Assembly (NCBI GenBank): GCA_963698035.1
Contig: OY969114.1
Location: forward strand, 390,001 to 422,000
Direction of reading: 5' to 3'
From: Candidatus Saccharimonadota bacterium
GTDB taxonomy: Archaea > Micrarchaeota > Micrarchaeia > Micrarchaeales > Micrarchaeaceae
Length of the DNA: 32,000 nt
Both the position numbers and the translations under genes were made by a program. The notes beneath the pieces are model-generated. The model ran no database searches and was not told the origin of the DNA. It saw nothing but the letters and a program-made list of their open reading frames with translations. Within the stretch, counting starts at the first letter, position 1. Each line of letters opens with the position of its first letter. Positions 8,834 through 31,215 of the stretch are shown here, in pieces.

Positions 8834-9469
8834 CTAGCGGTTCTCATGCTCTTTATGCTTAGACGGTGGCGCCCTTTTCCTGAGAAGCAGCAGTGCCGTC
8901 GCTATCACTATTATAATTACCATCACTACCGCTATGATAATCAGCGTGGAGGCAGGCACGCTTACCTTGGCAGCAACCTGAGCTATTGTGGTTGTTGTCG
9001 TGCTTGTTGTTGTGGTAGAAGATATCGCCTGTATAGTTGCTATCTTTAACACCCCGGCTTGGATAACCGCTCCTCCGGGGTTGGATGCATTGCTTGCTTC
9101 AACCGCAGATATCTGAATATTCCATGTTGCAGCTCCAGGAGTATTATTAATCGACATAAATACAGTAACATTCACCGGGAAGGTCGAATATGGCGCTATA
9201 GTACCGTAGAGCGGGCTGATTGTGATGTTTGGAGTTATCTGATTATTCTCCTGCGAAACCTTTGGGGTCTGCACCCTGAAGCCTATTGGTGTACTCCCAC
9301 CATTAGCAAGAGTAAGTTGCAAGGTTTGGGTGTGCCCTATCTGCACTTGGAAGTTAAGTGCCCCGGCCTCCTCTCCGAGCTGCGCGAAGGATAGCGCAGG
9401 CAGGACTGCAAGGAGCACTAGAACAAGTGCTATCCCGCCAATGCGGTAAGGATGTGCAGACGTTTGCAT
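8834..9469 (-). CDS. membrane-anchored secreted protein: single beta-sandwich domain, Thr/Ser stalk, C-terminal TM
   Basis: The track ORF begins at GTG 9484. I prefer ATG 9469 (MQTSAHPYRIGGIALVLVLLAVLPALSFAQ, a Sec-type signal). The mature part is about 130 aa, followed by SSTTTTSTTTTT, a TM helix and the basic tail RKRAPPSKHKEHENR. No family recognised. Confidence 0.6.
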   Translation of the reverse strand: MQTSAHPYRIGGIALVLVLLAVLPALSFAQLGEEAGALNFQVQIGHTQTLQLTLANGGSTPIGFRVQTPKVSQENNQITPNITISPLYGTIAPYSTFPVNVTVFMSINNTPGAATWNIQISAVEASNASNPGGAVIQAGVLKIATIQAISSTTTTSTTTTTIAQVAAKVSVPASTLIIIAVVMVIIIVIATALLLLRKRAPPSKHKEHENR

Positions 9470-9477
9470 CAAATCAA

Positions 9478-10440
9478 TCAGCACGAGTTCTGAATTAGTA
9501 TGTTTTGTGTGTATGTGGAAGCCGGTGTGCCCAGCGGTATGCCAAGCCCAAAGAAGATACTAGCACCTTGAGTGGATGTCCCAACTGTAGGGGCCACTAT
9601 AACTATCCCTGTATTCACCGCATTGCTTATTCCCGTGTTGGGCACAGAGCTGCCTATATAAGTTGATTGGGTTGTTGCAGCCCACGTAGTGTTCTGGGCT
9701 CCGAAGTTGTTGGCCCCCGCAATCCAGTTTCCAGCACCAATATATATCGTTGCCCCGGCGTTGCCACCAACATCGTTATCTGTTATTTGCTTGTTGGTTG
9801 GAACATTCGCTCCAGGGGAAATAGTTCCAAAGATTATTGTATTTGTGCTTAGGGTTATATAGCAGGTACCTATAATGTTTACCGTTGTTGAAACAACATC
9901 GTTAGCCGAGCTCGAATAGCCAGGGCATGAATTCTGGAAAATTACATTGCCTAGGTAGTTTCCTGCCGGCTGCGCAGCAGGTACTGTTACTCCAAAGTAA
10001 ACAATATTATTTGTGGTAGGTGTGGCTATGCTTGGCGCCGGAATTATAATCAGCGTATTAACTAGTAAGAGTGTTAAGGGAGTGGGCGTGCCTCCCGAGG
10101 TTGTTGCCCAAACAACATTACTCATGCTCAACGTGTTGGTGGGTGCTATGGTATTGAATGTTGCCGGCCCGCTTGCCACTAGTATATTGGCGGGTACATT
10201 GCCGCCAGGGTCGTTAACTGTAAATGCAACTGTTGCCCCAGGCGAGGTATAAGGTAGTAGCCCATTGATGCTTAGTGTACTGGCGCTGCTAATAAAGCAG
10301 TTGCCAGGTACTACCGCATTCGCAGTGACGGTGTTGCTTGACAGCGCAAAAGAAAGCTGTGCAAAACTGGAAATAGCATAAAAGATCGAACCAGCAGCTA
10401 TAAGGATTACTGTAGCCCAAATGATAAAGTCCTTCACCAT
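9478..10440 (-). CDS. secreted protein with two copies of a Cys-bounded ~125-aa domain
   Basis: 320 aa with an N-terminal hydrophobic signal. Domain 1 runs C48-C172 and domain 2 C193-C320, each starting C[FY][IV][ST] and ending QNSC. Domain 2 is roughly half identical to the C-terminus of the 858-aa neighbour. Confidence 0.65.
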   Translation of the reverse strand: MVKDFIIWATVILIAAGSIFYAISSFAQLSFALSSNTVTANAVVPGNCFISSASTLSINGLLPYTSPGATVAFTVNDPGGNVPANILVASGPATFNTIAPTNTLSMSNVVWATTSGGTPTPLTLLLVNTLIIIPAPSIATPTTNNIVYFGVTVPAAQPAGNYLGNVIFQNSCPGYSSSANDVVSTTVNIIGTCYITLSTNTIIFGTISPGANVPTNKQITDNDVGGNAGATIYIGAGNWIAGANNFGAQNTTWAATTQSTYIGSSVPNTGISNAVNTGIVIVAPTVGTSTQGASIFFGLGIPLGTPASTYTQNILIQNSC

Positions 10441-10465
10441 ATCGCCGCTTATTCTTTTTTAAGCA

Positions 10466-10479
10466 GATATATAAACTTT
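10466..10479 (-). promoter_or_regulatory. BRE/TATA-like element for the 320-aa gene
   Basis: The minus strand reads aaagtttatatatc and ends 25 nt upstream of ATG 10440. Confidence 0.3.
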
Positions 10480-10497
10480 TCCCAATAGCGGAATATA

Positions 10498-13074
10498 TCA
10501 ACATGAGTTTTCAATCAATATATTCTGGGTATATGTGTCTTTTGGTGTTCCTTTTGGAATGCCAAGGCCGAAGTAAATTGTGTTTGATCCAGAGGGAGCA
10601 ATGACGATGCCCATACTATTATAGCTTGAGGAAAGCGCATTACCCGCATATGTGCCAAGCGATGTTGGACTCCACAAGGTATTACCAATGCCAAAAGTAT
10701 CACTTACAATCAGACCGTTCCAAGCACTTCCAGATAGATATATGCTCGCCCCCACAGTACCAAGGTCATTATCTGTTACCGAATAACTGGTTGGAGTATT
10801 TGCGTTAGGGGCAATACCCCCAAAATTTATCACGTTTGTACTCAATGATACGAAACAGTTTGCGAGATTGAATGTTATTGGTACTGTACTTCCTGCGACA
10901 GCGTTGCCGCTGAGCGGCGAAGGTATATAGTTGCCGCTGATTATAACATTGGCAACCGTATACGGATAGTTGCCTGGCGTAAAAGAGAATACAATACTGT
11001 TTGGTACGATCACATTCAGGGTTTGACTATTATATACTACGTTCCACCCCTCGCCACTATTCGGCAGCCCTGTCTCCGAGAAGGTTGTCAGACCATTCCA
11101 AGTGGCTGTTAGAATTCCATTACCCTCTACAGTAAAATACGTGTTCTGCGTAAGGGGACTGGCAACAATAAGGTTTGCGCTGCTCACGAGCCACGAATTA
11201 AAGGTATATGTGCTTCCTGGAGAGATTGCATTCAGCGTGAAAGTGCCCAACATGCTACTGTTAAACGCATTATTTGCATATTGAACTCCTGGAGATACTA
11301 CAGAAGCCACTATATTTCCAGTTGTCGGTCCATCCGTGAAAATTACATTGTATGGGGGGAAAATAGCCGCAGCTATAGATATTGCTCCAATGCCAGTGGT
11401 AACTATATTAGCAATATACCCATTTCCAACAGCTACCGAATTACAAGTAATAATTGATGAAGATGATTCTCCTTTACTAGTAGTCACAGACACATATTGG
11501 TCTGTAGTGCATCCAGTAGATATACCACTTGTAACTGAAGTAGTCGCATTGCTTGATGCAAACATGACTATCACAAAACTGTTGGCTGTAAGAACATTAT
11601 AGCTAAGCGTTAGTGTTTTCACCCTTGTTGTTGTGGTGCTTATTCCTACAACCTTGCCGTTTGCAAATATTACGTTTGCCCCTATGCCGGTAAGGGTAGT
11701 ATTCTCTCTACTGACCGTACCTGCCAAGGTCCAAGTGCCCGTACTACTGCTGGTTTGCCAGCCTATGCTTGTATGGTTCTCACGGTCGGCGCCTATACTA
11801 TCATTTGTGATTATAGTCCATGTCACGGTCGGTGCGGTTGTTGAGTGTTCTCGTCCGCCACCGCTGAAGAAGTATGTGGTATAGATGCTAGGTGTGATCG
11901 TTAGGGAGACGGGCGTCGTAGTCGAAATAACATTGCCTGTTGCAAATCCAACGGCATAATTAGAAAAAGAATTCGACAATGCGCTATAGAAATAATAAGT
12001 CGCATTGGACCCCGTAAATGTCGTGCTAAGGGAGCTCCACACACCCGAATCGTATTTAAATAGCCTTATATTACCGCTGCTAATTCCTTGCGACACCACC
12101 CACGATTGCGGCACCGAGAAGTTGTATGTTACGTTGTTGACCAATGAGTCTATATTTGCGCTTGAACCAACAATCGTGCCATTTATCTGTATATATTGAT
12201 ATACCGGAGACAACGAGAATTTGATCTGTTGTGGAGCCTGGGTTTGATTTGCAACCGTTATATTGAGCTCTATGTTATTTTTCAATAGGTTGGTATGTAC
12301 GCCTTCTAGCGGGGATCCTTTTAGGGAGAACGCCGCTGTATTATTCGGCGCATACACAATTCCATTGTACTTGCCGTTTCCCGTATGGTTCAAGTACTGA
12401 TTTTGTACTGCGGGTACCGCCTGTATTGTGGTTGTGGAGGATAGCGTTGTTGTAGACGAGCTTGTCATTGACGAGGTGATTGAAGTTGTTGTAATAGGGA
12501 TGCCAGTGAATGTTATCGTGATAACGCTGCCAGCAGCAAGCAAACCACCCAAGGGCGAAGGAGTGTAATTTAATCCATTTGCCGTAATGCTCGAAACAAG
12601 ATACATGTAGTTGCCGGGCGATGTCGAAAATATCGTGCTATTCGGCGTCACAGCGACCTGCACAATCCCATTGTAGGAGACATTCCAGGCGATTCCGCTC
12701 GGCAGACCGGTTTCCACGAAAAGCGTATTGTATAGCGCAAAAGCTAAAGATGTGGTCGATGCCGAAGAGCTTGTACTGGATGATGTGCTAGTCACGCTAG
12801 AGGTCGTGGAAGAGATGGAAGTTGAGGAAAAGAGGATGGTGGAAGAGGAAACGGAGGTGGAGGAGATTGAAGTGGAAGAGACGGAGGTGGAAGAAATGGA
12901 AGTTGAAGAGACGAGAGTGGTGGAGACGGAGGTGCTGCTCAGAGTTAACGTATTGTTATCGAACAAAACCAAGGTCCTATGTGCCATTGAGGCAGGCGCA
13001 ATCAGGACTCCTGCGAGGAGCAGCCCCAAGCACAACGTAACCATAACCTTACTTACTCCTCTCACAGATGGCAC
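10498..13074 (-). CDS. large secreted surface protein (Ser/Thr repeats, two FxETGLPxGxxWxV beta-sandwich domains, C-terminal Cys-bounded domain)
   Basis: 858 aa. Signal MPSVRGVSKVMVTLCLGLLLAGVLIAPASMA (GTG start; ATG 13044 is the alternative). FVETGLPSGIAWNVSYNG and FSETGLPNSGEGWNVVYNS are domains known from Thermoplasmatales/Sulfolobales surface and thermopsin-like proteins. It has many N-x-S/T sequons and ends ...YFGLGIPKGTPKDTYTQNILIENSC. Confidence 0.7.
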   Translation of the reverse strand: MPSVRGVSKVMVTLCLGLLLAGVLIAPASMAHRTLVLFDNNTLTLSSTSVSTTLVSSTSISSTSVSSTSISSTSVSSSTILFSSTSISSTTSSVTSTSSSTSSSASTTSLAFALYNTLFVETGLPSGIAWNVSYNGIVQVAVTPNSTIFSTSPGNYMYLVSSITANGLNYTPSPLGGLLAAGSVITITFTGIPITTTSITSSMTSSSTTTLSSTTTIQAVPAVQNQYLNHTGNGKYNGIVYAPNNTAAFSLKGSPLEGVHTNLLKNNIELNITVANQTQAPQQIKFSLSPVYQYIQINGTIVGSSANIDSLVNNVTYNFSVPQSWVVSQGISSGNIRLFKYDSGVWSSLSTTFTGSNATYYFYSALSNSFSNYAVGFATGNVISTTTPVSLTITPSIYTTYFFSGGGREHSTTAPTVTWTIITNDSIGADRENHTSIGWQTSSSTGTWTLAGTVSRENTTLTGIGANVIFANGKVVGISTTTTRVKTLTLSYNVLTANSFVIVMFASSNATTSVTSGISTGCTTDQYVSVTTSKGESSSSIITCNSVAVGNGYIANIVTTGIGAISIAAAIFPPYNVIFTDGPTTGNIVASVVSPGVQYANNAFNSSMLGTFTLNAISPGSTYTFNSWLVSSANLIVASPLTQNTYFTVEGNGILTATWNGLTTFSETGLPNSGEGWNVVYNSQTLNVIVPNSIVFSFTPGNYPYTVANVIISGNYIPSPLSGNAVAGSTVPITFNLANCFVSLSTNVINFGGIAPNANTPTSYSVTDNDLGTVGASIYLSGSAWNGLIVSDTFGIGNTLWSPTSLGTYAGNALSSSYNSMGIVIAPSGSNTIYFGLGIPKGTPKDTYTQNILIENSC
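12751..12942 (-). repeat. Ser/Thr-coding low-complexity tandem repeat (about 30-nt unit STSISSTSVS) inside the 858-aa gene
   Basis: Protein residues 45-108 read SSTSVSTTLVSSTSISSTSVSSTSISSTSVSSSTILFSSTSISSTTSSVTSTSSSTSSSASTTS. The plus strand shows the mirrored gaagaNatggaagttgaNga periodicity. Confidence 0.7.
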
Positions 13075-13093
13075 CTCTCACATCATCTGCAGT

Positions 13094-13106
13094 AATATAT
13101 AACTTT
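13094..13106 (-). promoter_or_regulatory. BRE/TATA-like element for the 858-aa gene
   Basis: The minus strand reads aaagttatatatt and ends 19 nt upstream of GTG 13074. Confidence 0.3.
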
Positions 13107-13114
13107 ATTACGTT

Positions 13115-13900
13115 TTATCTCCTGCCAAAGAAAGCGAGCAGCCATCCTATGAAACCCTCCCTTTTTACCTCTCCTCCTCCTCCTTCCATCCCCGAACGAT
13201 CTATATACCCATCCGCTACCCCCCTGAACGCTGTAGAGAATTTTGACCGCGGCTTCAGCATGTAGGCAGGTACATGCGCGGCTATGCTGGCCGGGACGGC
13301 ATCATCTTCAGGTAGCGATCCGTTTATCTCATTTCCGTACATGTCCGCGACCTCTCTGTAGCACAGCTCGAACCTCGTGTTCCTTACCTTGTTCAGCACG
13401 AGCGAATGCTTCAGGTGCGCCCCGTCGTACTTCTTCGAAAGCCTTACTGCGCTGGCGCAGGCGGCAATGTCAGGCGTGGCGATTATTATGTCCTCGTTGA
13501 AGTGGCTGAGCGCTACATCGAGATAGTATCCTGGCGATGTATCCATTACTATGAAGTTGTATGAGGTCTTCTTAAGTTGGTTCAGGAATTCCGTCATCAG
13601 CTTCGCGCTGGGAAGCCCGGGTGACTCTCTTATCTCTCCGGGCAATACATGCAGCCCCGTAGGCTCGTGTATCGCCACGACGTTCTGAAGCTTCGCCTTT
13701 TTTGCAATCACTGCACGTACTCCCGAATTGACATCCTGGAGGCCCAGGTGGAAGCCTACGCTTGGGTTGGTGAAATCAAAGTCTACAAGAAGGACCTTGT
13801 AGCCGGCACTCCTCATTGCGGTAGAGAGATTTGTAGCTATCGTGGTCTTGCCTACTCCTCCCTTCTGTGACGAAACTCTTACCAAATAAGGCTTACTCAT
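13115..13900 (-). CDS. MinD/ParA-family (SIMIBI) ATPase with a C-terminal amphipathic tail
   Basis: 261 aa. Deviant Walker A SSQKGGVGKTT, VLLVDFDFTNPS, Walker B FIVMDTSPG and IIIATPDIAACASA. The C-terminus GGGGEVKREGFIGWLLAFFGRR is present. The start overlaps the upstream stop by 8 nt (ATGAGTAA). Confidence 0.85.
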   Translation of the reverse strand: MSKPYLVRVSSQKGGVGKTTIATNLSTAMRSAGYKVLLVDFDFTNPSVGFHLGLQDVNSGVRAVIAKKAKLQNVVAIHEPTGLHVLPGEIRESPGLPSAKLMTEFLNQLKKTSYNFIVMDTSPGYYLDVALSHFNEDIIIATPDIAACASAVRLSKKYDGAHLKHSLVLNKVRNTRFELCYREVADMYGNEINGSLPEDDAVPASIAAHVPAYMLKPRSKFSTAFRGVADGYIDRSGMEGGGGEVKREGFIGWLLAFFGRR

Positions 13901-15920
13901 AGCTTTCTCCCTTCAATCTTTTACTGAGCTTTACCAGCTCCTTTGTCCTCTCTGGGTCGTACCTTGGCCTTCTACGCCATTTCCTTGTTGCAGAGTAAGC
14001 TATTAATATGACTGCTATCGTGACCACGGCTCCTGCCATGGCCTCCACGTAGTGCAGATTTATGCTTACTTTGGTAACCGTGATGGGTATGGTGGTTACC
14101 GAGTTCTTCGTTGAGCTAGGCACCACTAATACAGGTATAGATTCGGTGATGTTCGCACTACCTGCCCTTGCATAGAGGTAGAAGAGCAGCGTTCCGGTGT
14201 AGTTACCCACGTTGACCATAAAGGTCTGGTTGAGGAGCTGGTTGGGCGCCGAGTACATGGTGTATATTGGGTTGATTATGCGCACTGATAGAGGCCCAGT
14301 AAGATAGAGGCTCACATTCTGCGGAGTGGTTCCGGTGTAGTAGAGAGAGGCGGATATGTGGCTGGTCGAACTCGTGTAGAAGGTTGGCGCGGTGATGCTA
14401 ACTATCTTCAAGATGCTCTGCGGCCCTACAGACGATGGCACAGAGAATATGTTTTGCGCATAGGTAAACAGGCTTGGCCTCAGCGGGTTGTTGACACTGT
14501 AGTAGGCATATGTCGCCTGGCCGGACGGCAGATAGGAGATAAACCAAGTTATCGTGTAGCCCGAAGAGCTCGAGGATATGTTGTATGGAAGGCCGGTCGC
14601 AGATATCTGTGAGAGATTTGAGGCCACAGCAGCCGGTATAAAGGTCATAAGCGTTGCGTTCCTTATCGTAGAATTGCCGTTATTTGATGTCTGAATTATG
14701 CTGCTTGACGTCCTGAGCGAATTCGTCATGTAGGTCTGGCCCAGTACCTGCACGCCATTCTGCAGCCTTCCATACACAATGAACGTCATATACTCTGTGT
14801 ATCTGCTGGCAGCCGCATTTTGCGCAGCAACGTCTATCATCAGCGGTATCACATAGGTGCCAGGCAGGGTCTGATTGGCCGTCCTGAACAGCACCTGCAC
14901 AATCGCGGTATGCCCAGGCAGGAGGTAGACGCTATTATCTGAGAGCGTTACCAGATAGGTAAAGTTTTTGCTTATGCTGAAGTTAACATATTCCGGCACC
15001 GTTGCATTAGATGTAACTTCTATCTGCGTAGTAAGTCCCTGTCCCTTAACAGCAGAAGTCACCATCGGAATGGTCTGTATGGCGACTCCGCTTATTGGAG
15101 TAGGCGCTGGCGCCGCCCCGGCCGCTCCGCCACCGCCTCCCCCCGGAGACGGAGGACTCGGCTGGGTCACAGTAAATGTTGCATTTCTGACATTTGACAT
15201 CCTTAAAGGTACATTTCCAGGGTAGTAGCTCGCCACCACATTTGCGGTGTAGCTGCCGACTGCAGAGGTAGCGCCGGTGATTTGGGCACTATAAATGGAT
15301 GTTTGCCCCGGATCGAGCGAAGTTAGCGAGAAATTCTCACTAAACGGGGCAGGCCCTGCTGTCGACAAGGTCAGTATTATGTTGGTAGCTGAAAGTTGCC
15401 CATTGTTCCTTAATCCTACACTGATGCTGAGTGGCGCCCCCAAGTTCACGCTAGACGCCGTCGAAAAATTGGTTATGCTCAAATTAGCTTCATTCAAGAG
15501 GAGAAAATACTCCGAGATCACGTTGCTGTATCCTAACGACGCGAAGCTAAGGGTGGCACTGTACGTTCCGTTCACAAAACCAACAGCATTGAACGAGAAT
15601 GGAACCGTTTCCACAATTTGGCTGACCGGGCCAGAGTACAATAACGCATTGTACACAATTGCGCCGGTAGTCTGGTTCCTTATTATAAAATTGCCGGTGG
15701 CGTTGGATAAGCTGCACGAGCTAAGGGTATAAATTGTATAATTGGTGTTTATGATCCAAGTATTCACATACGCCGACTTTATCCCAAGATTAAGGGCAAA
15801 GGGACACGGCACATTCACGTTGGCATAAAGGGAACCCGATGTAGAGCCATAAGAGATTGCGGCGCCTATTATTGTTGCCAGCATCAGCATTGGCAGTACG
15901 TAGGCTTCACGTCGCATCAT
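13893..15920 (-). CDS. large type-I membrane surface protein with CARDB-like beta-sandwich repeats
   Basis: 675 aa. Signal MMRREAYVLPMLMLATIIGAAISYG. Segments such as VNLGAPLSISVGLRNNGQLSATNIILTL...LDPGQTSIYSAQI...GSYTANV fit the CARDB/COG1361 pattern. A linker PSPPSPGGGGGGAAGAAPAPTP, a C-terminal TM helix and a 31-aa basic tail TRKWRRRPRYDPERTKELVKLSKRLKGESYE follow. Confidence 0.65.
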   Translation of the reverse strand: MMRREAYVLPMLMLATIIGAAISYGSTSGSLYANVNVPCPFALNLGIKSAYVNTWIINTNYTIYTLSSCSLSNATGNFIIRNQTTGAIVYNALLYSGPVSQIVETVPFSFNAVGFVNGTYSATLSFASLGYSNVISEYFLLLNEANLSITNFSTASSVNLGAPLSISVGLRNNGQLSATNIILTLSTAGPAPFSENFSLTSLDPGQTSIYSAQITGATSAVGSYTANVVASYYPGNVPLRMSNVRNATFTVTQPSPPSPGGGGGGAAGAAPAPTPISGVAIQTIPMVTSAVKGQGLTTQIEVTSNATVPEYVNFSISKNFTYLVTLSDNSVYLLPGHTAIVQVLFRTANQTLPGTYVIPLMIDVAAQNAAASRYTEYMTFIVYGRLQNGVQVLGQTYMTNSLRTSSSIIQTSNNGNSTIRNATLMTFIPAAVASNLSQISATGLPYNISSSSSGYTITWFISYLPSGQATYAYYSVNNPLRPSLFTYAQNIFSVPSSVGPQSILKIVSITAPTFYTSSTSHISASLYYTGTTPQNVSLYLTGPLSVRIINPIYTMYSAPNQLLNQTFMVNVGNYTGTLLFYLYARAGSANITESIPVLVVPSSTKNSVTTIPITVTKVSINLHYVEAMAGAVVTIAVILIAYSATRKWRRRPRYDPERTKELVKLSKRLKGESYE

Positions 15921-15950: not shown

Positions 15951-15960
15951 CTATATAAAC
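15951..15960 (-). promoter_or_regulatory. TATA-like element for the 675-aa gene
   Basis: The minus strand reads gtttatatag about 31 nt upstream of ATG 15920. Confidence 0.3.
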
Positions 15961-16007
15961 TCAAATAACTTTCCTTTTTCCGGCAAAAACAGATCGCCCT
16001 AAAAGAG

Positions 16008-16082
16008 CGGGTCCAGGGGGATTCGGACCCCCGGCCTGCTGGTTAAGAGCCAGCCGCTCTAGCCAGGCTGAGCTATGGACCC
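16008..16082 (-). tRNA. tRNA-Lys (anticodon CTT)
   Basis: The reverse complement folds as GGGTCCA-TA-GCTC-AGCCTGGCTA-GAGC-G-GCTGG-CTCTTAA-CCAGC-AGGCC-GGGGG-TCCGAAT-CCCCC-TGGACCC-G. All stems are perfect. The T-loop reads TCC instead of the usual TTC. Confidence 0.85.
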
Positions 16083-16109
16083 ACGAATCAAATTTAGGCG
16101 CATTTCATA

Positions 16110-16496
16110 TTAATACTTTCGTCTGAAGAGCAAGAATATGCAGATCGCTATTATTGCATCTAGCGTAAGGCAGTACACGCATATCTTACTCAGCATGTAC
16201 ATTGAGAAGAAGGAGTATATTATGCCACCTATGCCTATCAGGAACCACATCTCTGTAAGCGCCCTAAGTTTTCCAGACCGAACAAGGAAGAACCCGACCG
16301 CGAACCATATGATGGAGTAAACTGCCAGCGGAATCCCGAAGGCCACCGAATAGCTACTCGTTATCACCGCCGAGCAGTTTACTATCGACGATTTGAAGCA
16401 CGCGAGGTATCCAGGATAGTAATGAACGTAGGTCAGGTACGCAGATATCACTATGCCTGCAAACAGCAATGCCTCAAGAAGCGTTATCTTTCTCAA
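16110..16496 (-). CDS. vitamin K epoxide reductase (VKOR) family protein
   Basis: 128 aa with four predicted TM helices. Loop Cys pair C33/C41, SSYSVAFGIPLA, and a CVYC redox motif (C106/C109). The only possible start before TM1 is TTG 16496, 7 nt after the radical-SAM stop. Confidence 0.75.
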   Translation of the reverse strand: MRKITLLEALLFAGIVISAYLTYVHYYPGYLACFKSSIVNCSAVITSSYSVAFGIPLAVYSIIWFAVGFFLVRSGKLRALTEMWFLIGIGGIIYSFFSMYMLSKICVYCLTLDAIIAICIFLLFRRKY

Positions 16497-17678: not shown

Positions 17679-18245
17679 ATGAATAGGTTTTACACACTTA
17701 AAGGCTCTTTTACAGCAGATAAGATTACCTATTCCCTTAGGGCAAATGTATTTAAGGGTTGTATCAAAAGTAAATATGTGTCTGATAGCAAATTCTATTA
17801 TTATAGAATGTGGTGTAGAGACCGTGGATATAATAAAAGTCTCCCCGCTTTAATTGAAAGAGAAGACTGGGAGGACAACACCAAAAAGTATAAAGTAGAC
17901 CACAGTGATGGGACTTTAGACGAAATTGTAATAGAAAAAACAAGTAGTGGGTATTTTGGCAAGATAATAAGAACTAAACCAAAACAACAATACTTCGGTA
18001 AAAACGAAGGAGAAAAGAAAGTCGAAGTGCTAAAAACCGATTCAGAATTAATTGGGGAAAGAGCAAGAGAAATTACATACCTCGCATTTTTGCCTTATAA
18101 TTTAAACGATTTGCTCTTTTTGATAGAGCTTCATTTCGGAAGTCGAGGAATGAGAACAGTAAGGAAGTTTTTTGAACAATGTATATCACAACCATATGAT
18201 ATCAAAGCAGAACCTCTCAAAGTTCGTTCAAAAGAAGTTAGATGA
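17679..18245 (+). CDS. hypothetical protein (188 aa), no recognisable domain
   Basis: AT-rich codon usage like the neighbouring R-M gene. AGAGGTG lies 6 nt upstream of the ATG. The gene ends 35 nt upstream of the R-M gene on the same strand. I recognise no motif. Confidence 0.5.
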   Translation: MNRFYTLKGSFTADKITYSLRANVFKGCIKSKYVSDSKFYYYRMWCRDRGYNKSLPALIEREDWEDNTKKYKVDHSDGTLDEIVIEKTSSGYFGKIIRTKPKQQYFGKNEGEKKVEVLKTDSELIGERAREITYLAFLPYNLNDLLFLIELHFGSRGMRTVRKFFEQCISQPYDIKAEPLKVRSKEVR

Positions 18246-18280
18246 AGAAATAGACGTTCAGGGTTGGAAAGAGGATTAAT

Positions 18281-21200
18281 ATGACATTTACGCCTCTCTC
18301 AAAAGATGAAGCGAGGATAAAACTCAAAGAACTCGTAGAGCAGTTTGAAAATAATCTAACGGCTTATGAGAGTTCTGTGTATAAAGAAAGTCGTGTAGAA
18401 AGCGATTATATTGAAAAATTCTTTACCATTCTTGGATGGGATGTAAATAATGATAACGGCTATTCGGAATTATACAGAGATGTTATAAAAAGAGAAAATG
18501 TTGAGATAAAAGGACACCATAAAGAAGCCGATTATGCCTTTACGATAGGAGGAAGTAATATCGCATTTTTTGTAGAAGCAAAAAAGCCATCGGTTGATGT
18601 AAATCATTCAAAAGAACCTGCGTATCAAATTAGGAATTATGCTTGGAATAGTAAAAATCCTGTTTCTATCCTTACAAACTTCAAGGAGTTCTCTATTTAC
18701 GATTGCAGAATAAAACCTAATGAAAAGGATGACTCAAGAGTAGCGAGAATATCCTATATAACCTTTAAAGAGTATTTAGATAAGTTTGATTTTCTCTATG
18801 ATACTTTTTCGCAATCTGCTGTTAAAAAAGGTAGCCTTGAAAGATACATAGACAAATCAAACAAATCTGTTTCTGAAGTAGATGATGAGTTCTTAAAAGA
18901 GTTAGAACTATGGAGAAAAGACCTTGCTAAAGATATCGCAATAAACAATTCAAAATTAACAATTGCTGAATTGAATTATGCGGTTCAAATGATATTAAAC
19001 AGAATCCTTTTTCTTAGAATAGCAGAAGACAAGAGCATAGAGAAGGAAGATACACTAAAGACTATTTCAGATAGCAAAAATATCTATAGGAAACTTTTGG
19101 ATTATTTTGAGGAAGCTGATACAAAATATAATAGTGGTATATTTGATTTTGAATTGGATAAAATAACACCAGATTTGAAAATTGATGATAATACTCTAAA
19201 GAAGATAGTAGAGAATCTTTATTATCCTAAATCACCATACAATTTTAAAGTAATCAGTATCGAAATATTAGGAAGTGCCTATGAAAGATTCTTAGGAAAT
19301 ACATTAAGACTTACTGCATCTCATCAAGTAAAAGTAGAGCAAAAACCACTTGTTAAGAAATCTGGTGGGATTTATTACACACCTGAATTTGTTGTTGATT
19401 ACATAATCAAAAATACACTTGGTAAAAGAATAGAGGGTAAAACGCCAGAGCAAATAAAAGATATACGAATTTTGGATATGGCTTGCGGTTCTGGAACATT
19501 TTTGGTTAGAGCATACAAATATCTTTTAGATTATATCCTCGATTATTACCTCAAGGATAAAGCTAAATACAAAAATAAGATATATCAATTACCAAATAAC
19601 CAATATTCTTTGACTACTGACTTAAAGAAAAAGATATTGCTGAATAGCGTTTTTGGTATAGATATCGACTCTCAAGCTGTCGAGATAACAAAACTGAGTC
19701 TTCTATTGAAGGTTTTGGAAAACGAAACAAAAGATAGTGTTAATAGACAACTAAAACTTTTCAAAGAGCGAGCCTTGCCTAATCTTGATAAGAACATAAG
19801 ATGTGGAAACTCAATAGTAGATTCATCATACTTTAATCAGAGTAATTTTAATGATGATGCTGAAAAGAAGCAAAGGCTTAATCCTTTTGATTGGGATAGT
19901 GTAGAAAATGGTTTTGGCTATCTTGGTAATATCAAATTTGATATTATAATAGGAAACCCGCCTTATGTCAAAGAATATACATATAGAGAGCCATTCGAAG
20001 ATGTAAAGCAAACAGACCTAAAGAAATATTATCAAGGGAAAATGGATTTATGGTATATATTTACTTGTGAATCAATAGACCTACTGAAAGAACACGGCTT
20101 CCATAGTTATATCGCACTTAATAATTGGATAACTAATTCTGGAGCTTCAAAACTAAGGGATAAGATACTGACTGATACAAAAATGCTATCATTCTTCGAC
20201 TTTAATGAATATCAGGTTTTCAAAAAGAAAGCAAGCAATCAAACAATGGTCTTTGTATTGGAAAAGGATTCAAGGATAAAGCCATACTATACTGAATATT
20301 TCAGAGTCTTAGATAAGAAGATTACGAAGGGAGAGTTAATCAGTTATTTTAATTCAAAAGAAGGTAATAAAATTGAACGTTATAAAGTTCTGATAAATCC
20401 GAAAGAGTTGAAAGACAAGAAAATAAACTTCATAAATTCGGGGATTGGGGAAGTCATAGGCAAAATAGCTGGTAAAGCTAATTATTTCCTTACAGAAAAG
20501 AATGTCGCACAAGGCATAGTAAGTCCTCAAGAATATGTGTTAGAGTCTCATCTTAAGTATCTTAGTTCTGGTGTTAAAAAGGATGAGGGCATATTTGTTT
20601 TGAAGCAGTCAGAGGTTAAGGCTCTTGGATTGAATCATAGTGAAAATGAAATTATCAAACCATTTTATACAACAAACCAACTACATAGATATTACGCCGA
20701 CCAAAAGAATGATTTATGGATAATATACGCAGATATGAATGTCCGCAAGAGCATAAGAGATTATCCGCATATAAAGGAACATCTTGACAGATTTAGAAAG
20801 GTTATGACATCAGATTTCAAACCTTATGGATTGCACAGAGCAAGAGAGCCTAAGTTCTTCGAAGGTAGCAAAATTCTATCACTAAGGAAAACAGATAGAC
20901 CATTCTTTACCTATGCAGATTTCCCCTGTTATGTATCTCAAACGTATTTCATAATCAAACCAGACGATATTGACTTGAAATACCTTACAGGTCTTCTTAA
21001 TTCTAACTTGATATTCTTTTGGCTAAAGCATAAGGGTAAGAAACAAGGAAATCAATTACAAGTAGATAAAGAACCTCTACTTGAAATTCCCATATATAAA
21101 CCCGACAAGAACGAAAATGGCATAAAAGATGATATAGCACAACTTGTTGATAAGATAATCAATCTTGAAAAACAGAAGCATAATGTAAGGTTGGATTCTG

Positions 21201-21319
21201 ATAAAAGGGTTATAGAGCAAGAAATATCCTCTTACGAAAAACAGATAAACAAGTTAGTATATAAACTCTATAAAATAGAAAATTACTCTGAGACTATAGA
21301 AAGCGATGTGAAATTATGA
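18281..21319 (+). CDS. type IIG restriction-modification enzyme (fused PD-ExK nuclease, gamma-class N6-adenine methyltransferase and target-recognition domain; Eco57I/BpuSI/MmeI-like)
   Basis: 1012 aa. N-terminal nuclease motif EADYAF...FFVEAKKPS (D...ExK). Methyltransferase motifs GIYYTPEFVVDYII, ILDMACGSGTFLV (motif I), FGIDIDSQAVEITKLSL and IIGNPPYVKE (motif IV). A roughly 400-aa C-terminal region is a plausible TRD. GGAAAGAGGA lies upstream of the ATG. Confidence 0.85.
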   Translation: MTFTPLSKDEARIKLKELVEQFENNLTAYESSVYKESRVESDYIEKFFTILGWDVNNDNGYSELYRDVIKRENVEIKGHHKEADYAFTIGGSNIAFFVEAKKPSVDVNHSKEPAYQIRNYAWNSKNPVSILTNFKEFSIYDCRIKPNEKDDSRVARISYITFKEYLDKFDFLYDTFSQSAVKKGSLERYIDKSNKSVSEVDDEFLKELELWRKDLAKDIAINNSKLTIAELNYAVQMILNRILFLRIAEDKSIEKEDTLKTISDSKNIYRKLLDYFEEADTKYNSGIFDFELDKITPDLKIDDNTLKKIVENLYYPKSPYNFKVISIEILGSAYERFLGNTLRLTASHQVKVEQKPLVKKSGGIYYTPEFVVDYIIKNTLGKRIEGKTPEQIKDIRILDMACGSGTFLVRAYKYLLDYILDYYLKDKAKYKNKIYQLPNNQYSLTTDLKKKILLNSVFGIDIDSQAVEITKLSLLLKVLENETKDSVNRQLKLFKERALPNLDKNIRCGNSIVDSSYFNQSNFNDDAEKKQRLNPFDWDSVENGFGYLGNIKFDIIIGNPPYVKEYTYREPFEDVKQTDLKKYYQGKMDLWYIFTCESIDLLKEHGFHSYIALNNWITNSGASKLRDKILTDTKMLSFFDFNEYQVFKKKASNQTMVFVLEKDSRIKPYYTEYFRVLDKKITKGELISYFNSKEGNKIERYKVLINPKELKDKKINFINSGIGEVIGKIAGKANYFLTEKNVAQGIVSPQEYVLESHLKYLSSGVKKDEGIFVLKQSEVKALGLNHSENEIIKPFYTTNQLHRYYADQKNDLWIIYADMNVRKSIRDYPHIKEHLDRFRKVMTSDFKPYGLHRAREPKFFEGSKILSLRKTDRPFFTYADFPCYVSQTYFIIKPDDIDLKYLTGLLNSNLIFFWLKHKGKKQGNQLQVDKEPLLEIPIYKPDKNENGIKDDIAQLVDKIINLEKQKHNVRLDSDKRVIEQEISSYEKQINKLVYKLYKIENYSETIESDVKL

Positions 21320-29190: not shown

Positions 29191-31215
29191 TTATTTAATC
29201 GCCCCAGCAATTCGCCTCCTGGTAAGGCTCCTATGCAGCAAGAGCACGAGGGCGAACGCCGCAACCACTGCGATAACTGGAGCAAGTATTATCGGAGTTA
29301 TGAATATCGCATCTATGCTGCTGCCCGCATTCGCTCCAACGCGCTCGCTGATGAAACCATAACTGGCTGATCCCGTTGCATTGCCGAATGGAACGTCGTA
29401 AAGGGTCGCACTACCAACCCTTCCAAGATAGAAGCTTGTGCCGGTCCCATTCCTGAATGTCAGATAAACGCTTGCGTTGAGCGGGTTGTTGAGCAGGCTC
29501 TTCGCGCTTATCACTAAGTCGTAAACCGGGAGCTTGACCGGTATTTTTGACACGCCCGATATGTTGATGATTAGATTGACAGGCAGCCCCATGCCCTTGT
29601 AGTAAGCGTATGTCAGGTTGTATGGGACGCCCGCAAACAGCAGGGTGCTTCCGTTTAGCCTCTTCCCATCAAGGTAGAAATACTGCACGCTTATGTTGTT
29701 GTGGTAGTAATCCTGCCCGAACAGGGTTGTGAGGTACTGCGGCTTGAATACGGCATTCAACCGCATAGGCGAATTGACGGTAAAGATCACGCTGCTAGTG
29801 TTGTAGAGTCCGCTCCAGGAGTAGAATGCAATCCTGTTCTCATTTGTCGAATTGAAATACTGTTGCGAGAGCGATATGCTTGCACTGCTGCCGGCATCGT
29901 ACCAGCCCGATCCAATCGCATTTCCATATGGAGTCTGCAGCCCCACAAAATACTGCCCCTTCCACAGCGCATCAATCTGGGCGGGGGCACTCATCAGAAC
30001 GCTTATCGTGGAATTCATTTGCCCATTGCTCCAACCCTTAAACATCTCCCTTGCGCCTTCAGACACGTTTACAATAGCCGAATTCAGCGAAACCAAGGCG
30101 ACGCTGCCGGCGTCATACCATCCGCTGCCGGTTACATTGCCGTAATCAGATGACACGCCCAAATAATACTGGGAGACCCACAAGGCCGTCTCTGTGATAT
30201 TCCCGTATATGTTTACCTGCCCCTGCGCAGATGCCCCCGTATAAGAACCTGCGCCGCTCCCAATCCAGTCTTTGAACACCTCCCTCTGCGTTGTGCTTAT
30301 ATAGACGTATCTTGGTATGCTGAAGTTTACGGTCGAGAATGTCGAATAATAGCCCGTTCCTGTAGCGTTGCCGTATTGCGAATAAGCCTTAAGGCTGTAT
30401 ATGCTATTCCACAACCTTGTCCCGTTCTGCACCATGTGCACCGCAGACCCGATCTCGAAGAAGTCTGCGTATCCTGGCAATTCGGCTACCCCGTAGGGAT
30501 TTGATAGGGCGGTCTGGCTGCCCACCCCGTACCCCACATAGGCGTATGCATCATGCAGGAGGTTGAAGGAGTCATCGCTGTAATAGGAAAGGTTCTTGAA
30601 GAGCACTGTCTCCATAAAAGCGTCGTTGTTATTTGCGTCCGCAAGCTCTGCATATGCGACAGGAGCATGGTTGCCAGACTGCGATGTTCCTAACATCACG
30701 CTTCCTATCTGCTCATTGTTGAAGTAGATCTTCCATTCCGTCCCATTCGAATAGAACCAATACCTATTGAATATCCCATTCTGGCCCACAGAGTCATTTC
30801 CGCCCACCCCGCCGTAGAAAGTGCTGCTGTTTTTGGAGTTTGCCGGAAAGTACTCCCAGAACCACGTTGGGTATCCCGCCTCCAGAAGTACTGAGCCACT
30901 GCATCCTTGCGGGTTGCATGCCTGTGGGTAATACCCTGTTGTATTTGTCACCTCATAGCCTGCCTGTATGAATGCGCCGTCCTGCAGGGTCTCCCCCACC
31001 CAGAAGCCGAAAGAGCCAGCACTGAGGTTTTGTGGATATACGGTCTGTATGTAGACGCCGGCCCCGTTATTGTATGCCGAATCTGGTGCGCCGTTCGCCC
31101 CGGACTGAAACCAGAACTGGCCAAACGCGAGGTTCCCCAGCAGCACTAGCGAAAGCACAGCGAAAGAAACTAAGAAGAGAATATTACGTCCTCTCATGGT
31201 CCATACCCAACGCAT
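29191..31215 (-). CDS. membrane-anchored secreted protein: N-terminal concanavalin-like (peptidase G1/eqolisin-like) domain, three ~72-aa repeats, C-terminal TM anchor
   Basis: 674 aa (start ATG 31215 or ATG 31197, MRGRNILFLVSFAVLSLVLLGNLAFG). FWVGETLQDGAFIQAGYEV and PTWFWEYFP parallel the WVGIDG..LQTG and AWYEWYP motifs of scytalidoglutamic peptidase as I recall them. Three repeats carry Yx[VL]xxxxxYGNxxGSGWYDAGS. The tail is a TM helix plus HRSLTRRRIAGAIK. Confidence 0.65.
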   Translation of the reverse strand: MRWVWTMRGRNILFLVSFAVLSLVLLGNLAFGQFWFQSGANGAPDSAYNNGAGVYIQTVYPQNLSAGSFGFWVGETLQDGAFIQAGYEVTNTTGYYPQACNPQGCSGSVLLEAGYPTWFWEYFPANSKNSSTFYGGVGGNDSVGQNGIFNRYWFYSNGTEWKIYFNNEQIGSVMLGTSQSGNHAPVAYAELADANNNDAFMETVLFKNLSYYSDDSFNLLHDAYAYVGYGVGSQTALSNPYGVAELPGYADFFEIGSAVHMVQNGTRLWNSIYSLKAYSQYGNATGTGYYSTFSTVNFSIPRYVYISTTQREVFKDWIGSGAGSYTGASAQGQVNIYGNITETALWVSQYYLGVSSDYGNVTGSGWYDAGSVALVSLNSAIVNVSEGAREMFKGWSNGQMNSTISVLMSAPAQIDALWKGQYFVGLQTPYGNAIGSGWYDAGSSASISLSQQYFNSTNENRIAFYSWSGLYNTSSVIFTVNSPMRLNAVFKPQYLTTLFGQDYYHNNISVQYFYLDGKRLNGSTLLFAGVPYNLTYAYYKGMGLPVNLIINISGVSKIPVKLPVYDLVISAKSLLNNPLNASVYLTFRNGTGTSFYLGRVGSATLYDVPFGNATGSASYGFISERVGANAGSSIDAIFITPIILAPVIAVVAAFALVLLLHRSLTRRRIAGAIK

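Follow-up and report, generated by a model that had tools for sequence, protein, structure and literature searches.

A conserved gene cluster of Micrarchaeota combines a MinD-like ATPase with exported proteins that share a C-terminal domain: a candidate surface-display system

We studied a cluster of five genes, named A to E in the following, that is encoded in the genome of a Micrarchaeota (DPANN) archaeon. The window, i.e., the whole stretch of DNA that was analysed, comprises 32,000 nt (contig OY969114.1 of assembly GCA_963698035.1, positions 390,001 to 422,000), and coordinates refer to this window if not stated otherwise. A sequence-only reading of the window had proposed five minus-strand genes that form a surface structure around a MinD/ParA ATPase. 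All five open reading frames (ORFs) are present on the minus strand exactly where this reading had placed them. The cluster and its putative promoters, in the order of transcription, are as follows (lengths in amino acids, aa).

15952..15959 (-): TATA-like box TTTATATA, putative promoter of A-B, 32-39 nt upstream of the A ATG
13893..15920 (-): A, type I membrane glycoprotein, 675 aa
13115..13900 (-): B, MinD-like P-loop ATPase, 261 aa
13095..13102 (-): TATA-like box TTATATAT, putative promoter of C, 21-28 nt before the C GTG, within the 40-nt gap between B and C
10498..13074 (-): C, secreted variable adhesin-like glycoprotein, 858 aa, GTG start at 13074
10501..10911 (-): D-type (Cys-bounded, ...ENSC) C-terminal domain of C, residues ~722-858
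10468..10475 (-): TATA-like box TTTATATA, putative promoter of D-E, 28-35 nt upstream of the D ATG
9478..10440 (-): D, secreted protein with two tandem D-type immunoglobulin (Ig)-like domains, 320 aa
8834..9484 (-): E, membrane-anchored PapD/MSP/ASH-like beta-sandwich, 216 aa if started at the GTG

As had been claimed, the stop codon of A overlaps the ATG of B (ATGAGTAA). For E, an alternative start is given by the ATG at 9469, which yields 211 aa and is the first ATG, 8 nt past the stop codon of D. The genes are indeed close to each other, but since TATA-like boxes precede A, C and D, three transcription units (A-B, C, and D-E) appear more likely than a single operon.

The exported proteins had been described as rich in N-x-S/T sequons, which holds for A (20 sequons), C (17) and E (4) but not for D (1). 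Family searches with A to E agree with the earlier view that there is no secretion ATPase, ABC transporter or PGF-CTERM protein among the five genes. C, however, carries a PGF_pre_PGF domain (TIGR04213; residues 249-375, E 1.5e-13). In family and PDB sequence searches, A to E find no match to characterised families of S-layer, transporter or pilus proteins, which is also in line with the first assessment, and PDB sequence searches with C, with D, and with profiles of D and E returned nothing meaningful.

Protein A is composed of a signal peptide, an N-terminal strand with a cysteine (..ANVNVPCPF..), Ig-like/CARDB-like repeats, a Gly/Ala/Pro-rich linker (PSPPSPGGGGGGAAGAAPAPTP), a transmembrane (TM) helix and a basic cytoplasmic tail of 31 aa (RKWRRRPRYDPERTKELVKLSKRLKGESYE) with the motif RPRY..ER..L..L. 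Signal peptide, linker, TM helix and tail had been read correctly from the ORF. The CARDB-like sandwiches, on the other hand, are reflected by a weak match only (residues 145-230, E 6e-4, below the cut-off), and matches to CARDB/NEW3-type Ig repeats are likewise weak among the A orthologues. We aligned 28 orthologues taken from the loci described below, since a word-indexed homologue search gave only 6 proteins. They are 22-41% identical overall, show nearly invariant cysteines C39 and C69, and retain the signal peptide, the N-terminal strand (..L.A.V.V.CPF..) and the C-terminal TM helix. The latter is found in 33/36 A orthologues, and 22 of these 33 also show the juxtamembrane tail motif, which is close to [RK]Y..(D/E)RA..L..L(R/K)E.IKR. 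The orthologous tails have a median length of 27 aa and a net charge of +5. When A is related to D by profile-profile comparison (hhalign), the signal peptide and the first strand alone align (E 2.9e-4, probability 41%), i.e., a D-type domain at the N-terminus of A is not established. The Pfam family PF11797 (WxLIP_HBD) is matched by 1/28 A homologues (E 1.5e-4) and not by A of the window itself.

The linker of A also contains a run of six G (window 15100-15110 (-)), which is five G long in the otherwise identical Logan contig ERR10755947 (L001, ~8430). The G5 version breaks A into two ORFs of 275 and 390 aa in L001. Either the assembly is wrong here, or the tract is prone to slippage and could switch A off.

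Protein B had been assigned to the MinD/ParA ATPases, and both family and structure matches agree. Its deviant Walker A motif (SQKGGVGKTT) follows the pattern KGGxGK[ST] including the signature lysine and is kept in 36/36 cluster-linked B orthologues. MinD structures of Pyrococcus and Archaeoglobus are matched end to end (1ion, E 5e-23; 1g3q, E 5e-21; 1hyq, E 6e-18), with residues 6-231 of B aligned to residues 4-232 of 1ion, and the PDB matches include CapA/CapB fusions. The best curated family is the archaeal MinD TIGR01969 (105.3 bits, E 2.9e-30, vs. a cut-off of 201.75 bits), i.e., by its score B falls outside the curated members and is a divergent relative of them. The C-terminal segment of B (GFIGWLLAFFGRR) resembles the membrane-targeting helix of MinD. 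A hydrophobic/basic C-terminus is found in 27/36 B orthologues by a crude composition count, which we used in place of a hydrophobic-moment filter (5/36) because the latter was judged too strict.

Taken together, the tail motif of A and the MinD hallmarks of B would fit a cytoplasmic ATPase that is coupled to a surface protein. The surface assembly organised by an ATPase, as envisaged by the sequence-only reading, is supported in part; that B positions anything we can only conjecture, and B is missing in a few clusters. A membrane partner with a short basic cytoplasmic segment parallels the juxtamembrane peptide of CapA, which activates CapB, or MinE-type helices. B has no C-terminal tyrosine cluster, and its partner A is in no described family. 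B shares being encoded in a surface locus with the FleN/FlhG/MinD ATPases (arCOG00589, Haloferax MinD4, TadZ/CpaE, BcsQ, FlhG; CapA/CapB), but here there are no type IV pilus ATPase or platform, flagellar or polysaccharide genes. ATPases from arCOG00589, a FleN/MinD family, are known to accompany type IV pilus loci in archaea, and a regulatory or positioning role is ascribed to them (PMC4858521; bioRxiv 10.64898/2026.04.22.720090). The pairing of a MinD-type ATPase with a surface structure is therefore not unprecedented.

Proteins C and D are linked by a common domain. C contains Ser/Thr runs and two FxETGLPxGxxW motifs, both recognised before, and has a D-type domain at its C-terminus; it ends with ...ENSC and has neither a TM helix nor a PGF-CTERM. 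The Cys-bounded domain that had been noticed in both proteins is well supported: over its last 140 aa, C shares 45% identity with domain 2 of D (BLASTP E 9e-29), and both proteins end with NSC. C740 and C858 are retained in all 30 C proteins compared. The C orthologues span 500-2200 aa and have differing N-terminal parts (among them InlB B-repeats, DUF2341, beta-propellers, PKD domains and lectin-like parts) but throughout the same C-terminal domain. That is, C is a variable giant protein, and the variety of its N-terminal modules, as identified from sequence matches, is typical of adhesins.

In D, the two domains cover residues ~33-172 and ~178-320, each opening with a conserved strand (..VTANVxV..). 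Both are Cys-bounded in this genome and the last residue of D is an invariant Cys. Conserved motifs of the D-type domain are two Trp (in the contexts GNW and NTLW) and the terminal ENSC. Elsewhere, D is represented by 1-3 single-domain genes of ~175 aa. An exhaustive profile search among 1.84 billion representative proteins identified 494 members of the D-domain family, which fall into size classes of ~175 aa (one domain), ~320 aa (two domains) and 500-1600 aa (giant proteins with a C-terminal domain). For the best 150 listed of these 494 members, the D-type domain reaches the last residue of the protein in 150/150 cases. The D-type Ig-like domain is new and, among the listed members, always closes its protein in ...ENSC.

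Given the companions of archaeal type IV pili mentioned above, the cluster could be read as an accessory locus of such pili, where D and its paralogues are the pilins, B is a FleN/MinD regulator, and genes for the ATPase, platform and prepilin peptidase are located elsewhere. Beside the arCOG00589 ATPases, Ig-rich adhesins also accompany archaeal type IV pilus loci, and D indeed shows a hydrophobic helix at its N-terminus followed by a beta-domain. But the signal peptides point in another direction. An AxA-like signal peptidase I site is located just before the conserved strand in 52/66 D proteins, while a class III-like (type IV pilin) motif followed by a hydrophobic stretch is found in 2/66 only, in line with the sequence-only reading (counts from regular expressions, not from FlaFind or SignalP). 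By this criterion the D signal peptides are of Sec type. Furthermore, the hydrophobic N-terminus is the most conserved part of type IV pilins but the least conserved region of D. The D-type domain also occurs in tandem copies and at the C-terminus of giant proteins, and there is no PilB/FlaI ATPase or PilC/TadC platform in the five genes or their recurrent neighbours. We consider this reading very improbable, and the cluster is not a type IV pilus locus.

Protein E comprises a signal peptide, an ectodomain formed by a single sandwich of ~110 aa, a Ser/Thr stalk, a TM helix and a basic tail. Its AlphaFold2 model has a mean per-residue confidence (pLDDT) of 61 overall and of 70-80 in the sandwich. 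Fold matches are ASH/MSP/PapD-like domains, including the chaperones FaeE and Caf1M of chaperone-usher systems, while Pfam matches in the PapD-like clan are weak. The most conserved element of E is an invariant loop of the ectodomain, SNxSNPGGAV..GVAK. Its low model confidence is what one would expect of an interaction site. PF06030 (WxLIP_PGBD, formerly DUF916) is weakly matched by 4/12 E homologues (best E 0.0041) and not by E of the window. The cytoplasmic tails of E homologues (L004, L015, L031 and others) are extremely rich in Lys/Arg and differ in length (median 63 aa, of which 27 are K/R), while the tail of E in the window has only 15 aa.

The model of D (pLDDT 74.6) finds its top fold matches among chaperone-usher pilins and adhesins, i.e., CsuE (E 1.4e-7), CfaE/CfaB, LpfD, FimH and PapG. 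This leads to the main rival of the reading that we favour below, namely a polymeric fibre that is not of type IV. Here, D would polymerise head-to-tail by donor-strand exchange, C would be the tip adhesin (like FimH, PapG or CsuE), E a tethered chaperone or base anchor, and A-B a platform for assembly or positioning. Such a fibre would be analogous to chaperone-usher pili, though in an archaeon and without an usher. Beside the folds of D and the chaperones among the matches of E, it is in accordance with the 1-3 D paralogues of some genomes, which resemble major and minor pilins, and with the low confidence of the conserved N-terminal strand in domain 1 of D (pLDDT <50 for residues 24-43). 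Thin filaments of unknown composition are known from cells of the Micrarchaeota strain ARM-1 (PMC11329633). In contrast, the link between the N-terminal strand of D and its next strand has only 2-4 residues (..V-x-G-x-C-Y..), such that the strand looks like an in-cis hairpin, not like a free donor strand, and the same strand also precedes the D-type domain inside C.

When compared directly to the chaperone-usher systems (Fim, Pap, Csu, CFA/I, Caf1), the likeness comprises the fold of D, which is nearest to their pilins and two-domain tip adhesins, the placement of E in the PapD-like superfamily (FaeE, Caf1M) and the order of an adhesin part followed by a pilin-like domain in C. On the other hand, E is a single-domain, membrane-anchored protein vs. 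the soluble two-domain chaperones of PapD type, there is no outer membrane, and sequence similarity is absent. Among the five genes there is no usher-like match, and the cluster holds no further conserved gene. Moreover, chaperone-usher assembly is free of ATP, while an ATPase is part of the cluster. Thus, the cluster is not a true chaperone-usher system.

Donor-strand fibres do exist in archaea (Sulfolobus threads, bundling pili of Pyrobaculum and haloarchaea, Pyrodictium cannulae), and these are also Sec-dependent, not of type IV, rich in beta-structure and encoded by small gene sets. Nevertheless, they show no sequence match, the thread protein, AbpA and CanA are not among the top 50 fold matches of D, and these systems have no PapD-like anchored partner. 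We considered whether the thread cluster includes a MinD-like ATPase and dropped the idea: the thread paper names neither a MinD nor a cluster-encoded ATPase, and the only ATPase that it mentions, once, belongs to type IV pilus assembly. In this respect the present cluster is unlike that of the threads. Considering both sides, we regard a fibre built from D as unlikely. A more specific version, in which a single-membrane, usher-less fibre distinct from type IV pili and from all known donor-strand fibres of archaea is formed as E hands D into a filament tipped by C and B sets the sites from the cytoplasm via the tail of A, is slightly less likely still. If it were true, the filament would be an organelle for host attachment of Micrarchaeota and would match the thin filaments of ARM-1.

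A close architectural parallel is found in the WxL/Csc systems of Firmicutes (Lactobacillales, Bacillales). WxL clusters encode a small protein consisting of the WxL domain only, a large protein with variable host-binding domains and a C-terminal WxL domain, and a WxLIP protein (PMC10599100). The latter consists of Ig-like domains (DUF916-DUF3324) on a C-terminal TM helix, and AlphaFold models insert one of its strands into the WxL domain (PMC10599100; PMC9772566). This is the same clustered three-part layout as given by D, C and E, respectively. The weak WxLIP_PGBD matches of 4/12 E homologues and the single WxLIP_HBD match of an A homologue reported above may add to the likeness. But searches for the Pfam WxL domain match neither D nor C (none at E<=1 in D and 23 homologues, none at E<=0.001 in 30 C proteins), and the parallel is therefore one of architecture and of how the system may work, not one of homology. 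Further differences are the motifs of the D-type domain (two Trp in GNW and NTLW plus the terminal ENSC instead of dual Trp-x-Leu), the one sandwich of E instead of two, the lack of peptidoglycan and of an LPXTG partner, and the archaeal host. Finally, neither an ATPase nor an A-like protein is mentioned in the WxL papers (PMC10599100; PMC9772566).

Next, we consider how the cluster is distributed. Homologues of D and E bear names of Micrarchaeota metagenome-assembled genomes (MAGs). A scan with the D profile (one genome per species) yields 69 loci. Nearly all belong to Micrarchaeota, among them locus L057 of the cultured Ca. Micrarchaeum sp. A_DKE; a scan of viral contigs with the D profile found zero relatives. 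Some loci are labelled 'Marsarchaeota' or 'Gammaproteobacteria'. Because proteins of 'Marsarchaeota' loci are up to 99.5% identical to proteins of Micrarchaeota-labelled MAGs, we treat these labels as mislabelling, i.e., as inconsistent names and not as a wider range.

ORFs were called and classified in all loci of the D-profile scan. In 24 loci the sequence extends at least 9 kb upstream and at least 6 kb downstream of D/E, and 19 of these have both A and B nearby. E is located directly 3' of a D- or C-type gene in 55/57 cases, and the gaps between A and B are mostly -14 to +2 nt. Gene order varies: we find ABCDE (12), ABDE (7), DEABC (3), DEAB (2), ACDE (2) and several divergent layouts, i.e., at least five orders with differing genomic neighbours. 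Despite this rearrangement, the A-B and D-E modules remain linked in dozens of Micrarchaeota genomes. A check for synteny among relatives had been named beforehand, and its outcome confirms that the cluster is real and conserved across the Micrarchaeota-labelled genomes found. As the synteny is conserved, chance association is excluded. Inherited synteny alone is insufficient as an explanation, since the linkage persists across at least five gene orders and varied contexts. That the linkage outlasts rearrangement and relocation argues, at the level of genome comparison, that A-B and D-E are functionally connected.

Beyond the five genes, clustering of flanking ORFs (~65 loci) revealed no sixth conserved gene within the cluster. 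The flanking genes vary by lineage, with FtsZ as the commonest family in 10 loci only. In these, ftsZ adjoins the cluster (e.g., L022, 11531-12667) and is convergent with E, which may reflect lineage synteny or hint at a link to cell division. In another locus (L004, 3380-4885 (-)), a polytopic membrane protein of 501 aa with a spermidine-synthase-like domain is inserted between B and C in opposite orientation.

The same data allow us to assess whether the cluster is simply a juxtaposition of two unrelated modules, where B is a general MinD (for division or for positioning other cargo) with A as its membrane partner and C-D-E form a separate surface set. The separate promoter-like boxes of A-B, C and D-E could be explained in this way, as could ftsZ beside the cluster in 10 loci, D-E pairs without A-B nearby (L006) and the listing of minD under cell-division genes in the ARM-1 genome paper (PMC8784108). 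But the linkage through at least five gene orders and different contexts speaks against it, and A and D have the motif of signal peptide and first strand in common (see the hhalign result above). In addition, at least two copies of A-B, each beside its own giant C-type protein, are found in L057, L056, L068 and L070. Overall, there is but a slim chance that the modules are unrelated.

The A_DKE locus (L057) itself carries two A-B pairs with one giant C-type neighbour apiece. Between the two clusters we find genes for XPD, a signal-peptide peptidase and MCM. The mcm gene (L057, 13886-15636 (-)) encodes the C-terminal half of MCM (P-loop, lid and winged-helix domains; 314 aa) beside an ORF of 269 aa that has no Pfam match, i.e., it could be split or frameshifted.

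A different region of A_DKE is relevant for the relation to the S-layer. The S-layer protein of Micrarchaeota (SLP_Mh type) is a PF05123/TIGR01564 protein, Micr_00292 (bioRxiv 10.1101/2021.04.28.441871). The surrounding genes Micr_00288-00294 (PMC8975820, supplementary file 8) encode AglB, a hypothetical protein of 669 aa, a MinD-like protein (arCOG00589), a lectin-like protein of 5095 aa and proteins of 709 and 175 aa (PMC8975820). Here, the MinD-like gene follows the gene of the 669-aa hypothetical and precedes that of the 5095-aa lectin-like protein; it is transcribed at about the average level and shows no proteome signal (PMC8975820). Micr_00288-00294 looks like another, putative module of A, B and a giant protein next to genes for S-layer and N-glycosylation. 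Since XPD, the peptidase and MCM, but not AglB, are located at L057, this MinD region is a place other than L057.

One could thus ask whether the cluster serves to anchor or build the S-layer. That is, the stalks of A and/or E would hold an anchorless S-layer protein, D and C would be associated with the S-layer, and B would pattern its insertion. The neighbourhood of Micr_00292, AglB and the MinD-like ATPase in A_DKE would be in accordance with this, and the PGF_pre_PGF domain of C is typical of archaeal surface glycoproteins. But none of A to E matches PF05123 or TIGR01564, such that the cluster is not the Micrarchaeota S-layer protein. No PF05123-type gene was found among those window ORFs that were scanned, no recurrent large secreted family flanks the cluster (~65 loci), and the genes at the S-layer side of A_DKE, which are at most putative homologues of A, B and D, are located elsewhere than L057. 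We therefore see a role in S-layer anchoring or biogenesis as quite improbable.

A VKOR-family gene (128 aa) and a tRNA-Lys(CTT) are located directly upstream of A (16007-16496 (-)). VKOR is a family of extracytoplasmic disulfide-forming enzymes and may bear on the Cys-bounded domains; it adjoins the cluster in the closest relatives L001 and L002 but not in more distant loci. Further upstream, an island of low GC content (17679-21319; GC 0.30-0.33 vs. ~0.49 around) was probably acquired horizontally. It encodes an MmeI-like type IIG restriction-modification enzyme of 1012 aa (matches to N6_Mtase, MmeI_Mtase, Eco57I and TaqI_C) and a 188-aa ORF without family. Finally, the window contains a second exported type I membrane glycoprotein (29191-31215 (-); 674 aa, 22 sequons). 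It carries YGN..GSGWYDAGS motifs as repeats, and its C-terminal TM helix is accompanied by a basic tail; we find no Pfam match and no linked MinD gene for it.

We favour, tentatively and at slightly less than even chances, the reading of the cluster as a Micrarchaeota-specific surface-display (adhesion) assembly that is anchored by E and whose sites are organised by A-B. Here, A, C, D and E would be exported by Sec and cleaved by signal peptidase I. The D-type domain, which makes up all of mature D and the C-terminal module of C, would serve for docking in both proteins and attach to the PapD-like ectodomain of E, probably via beta-strand augmentation. E would stand on its Ser/Thr stalk, anchored in the cytoplasmic membrane. 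Together with D and the tail domain of C it would make up a platform or short stalk, from which the adhesin-like, variable part of C would be presented past the S-layer. A would be a second membrane-anchored Ig-repeat protein of the same assembly, with its basic cytoplasmic helix as a handle for B. The ATP-bound dimer of B may bind the membrane through its putative C-terminal amphipathic helix and either cluster and position the assembly (e.g., at the site of host contact) or license its formation. While gene content, domain folds, conserved motifs and conserved linkage can be read from the data above, we infer every physical contact of this scheme as well as its role in host attachment.

In favour of such a display assembly are the tail motif of A, which is conserved despite the low overall identity (22-41%) of its orthologues, and the linkage of D-E and A-B through rearrangements with E directly after D or C. 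It is also supported by the variable adhesin-type modules of C, by the PapD-like fold of E and the pilin-like fold of D, by the WxL clusters as an architectural precedent, by the MinD features of B and the related ATPases at other archaeal surface loci, by the Sec-type signal peptides of D and by the many sequons of A, C and E. Several observations weigh against it. Ig-like folds are promiscuous, the TM-scores of the D fold matches are low (0.2-0.45) and the model of E is of moderate confidence only. The Pfam WxL domain is undetected in D or C, and the three promoter-like boxes suggest that the modules may be expressed independently. B is missing in a few clusters (L040, L054, L036; orders ACDE and ADE), and D-E pairs without A-B within 10 kb are found in L006, L019 and L053. 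Furthermore, the putatively similar module of A_DKE near the S-layer gene is transcribed at about the average level and without proteome signal.

Under the display reading, the cluster is best filed as a surface-display system with a shared C-terminal docking domain and a MinD-family positioning ATPase, outside of both the WxL and the chaperone-usher families. The initial suggestion of an undescribed system holds insofar as our literature search found no paper describing the cluster; its elements have precedents, i.e., MinD-type ATPases in surface loci and the WxL-like triad.

Micrarchaeota are tiny symbionts that, like other DPANN archaea, attach to archaeal hosts, and to our knowledge the molecules that make this contact are not known. 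With all functional statements inferred, the cluster is a concrete and testable candidate for the DPANN apparatus of host contact. It provides giant adhesin-like proteins that are hypervariable but share a docking domain and, since it is conserved, adhesin-like and present in the cultured A_DKE (L057), a defined gene set that is open to testing. A-B would furthermore be a compact example of a MinD-type ATPase that is connected to an extracellular structure by a single-pass membrane protein whose cytoplasmic helix is conserved, which bears on the function of archaeal MinD paralogues. Finally, by analogy, our comparison suggests that the pairing of a shared C-terminal docking domain with an anchored PapD-like partner arose in bacteria (WxL) as well as in archaea.

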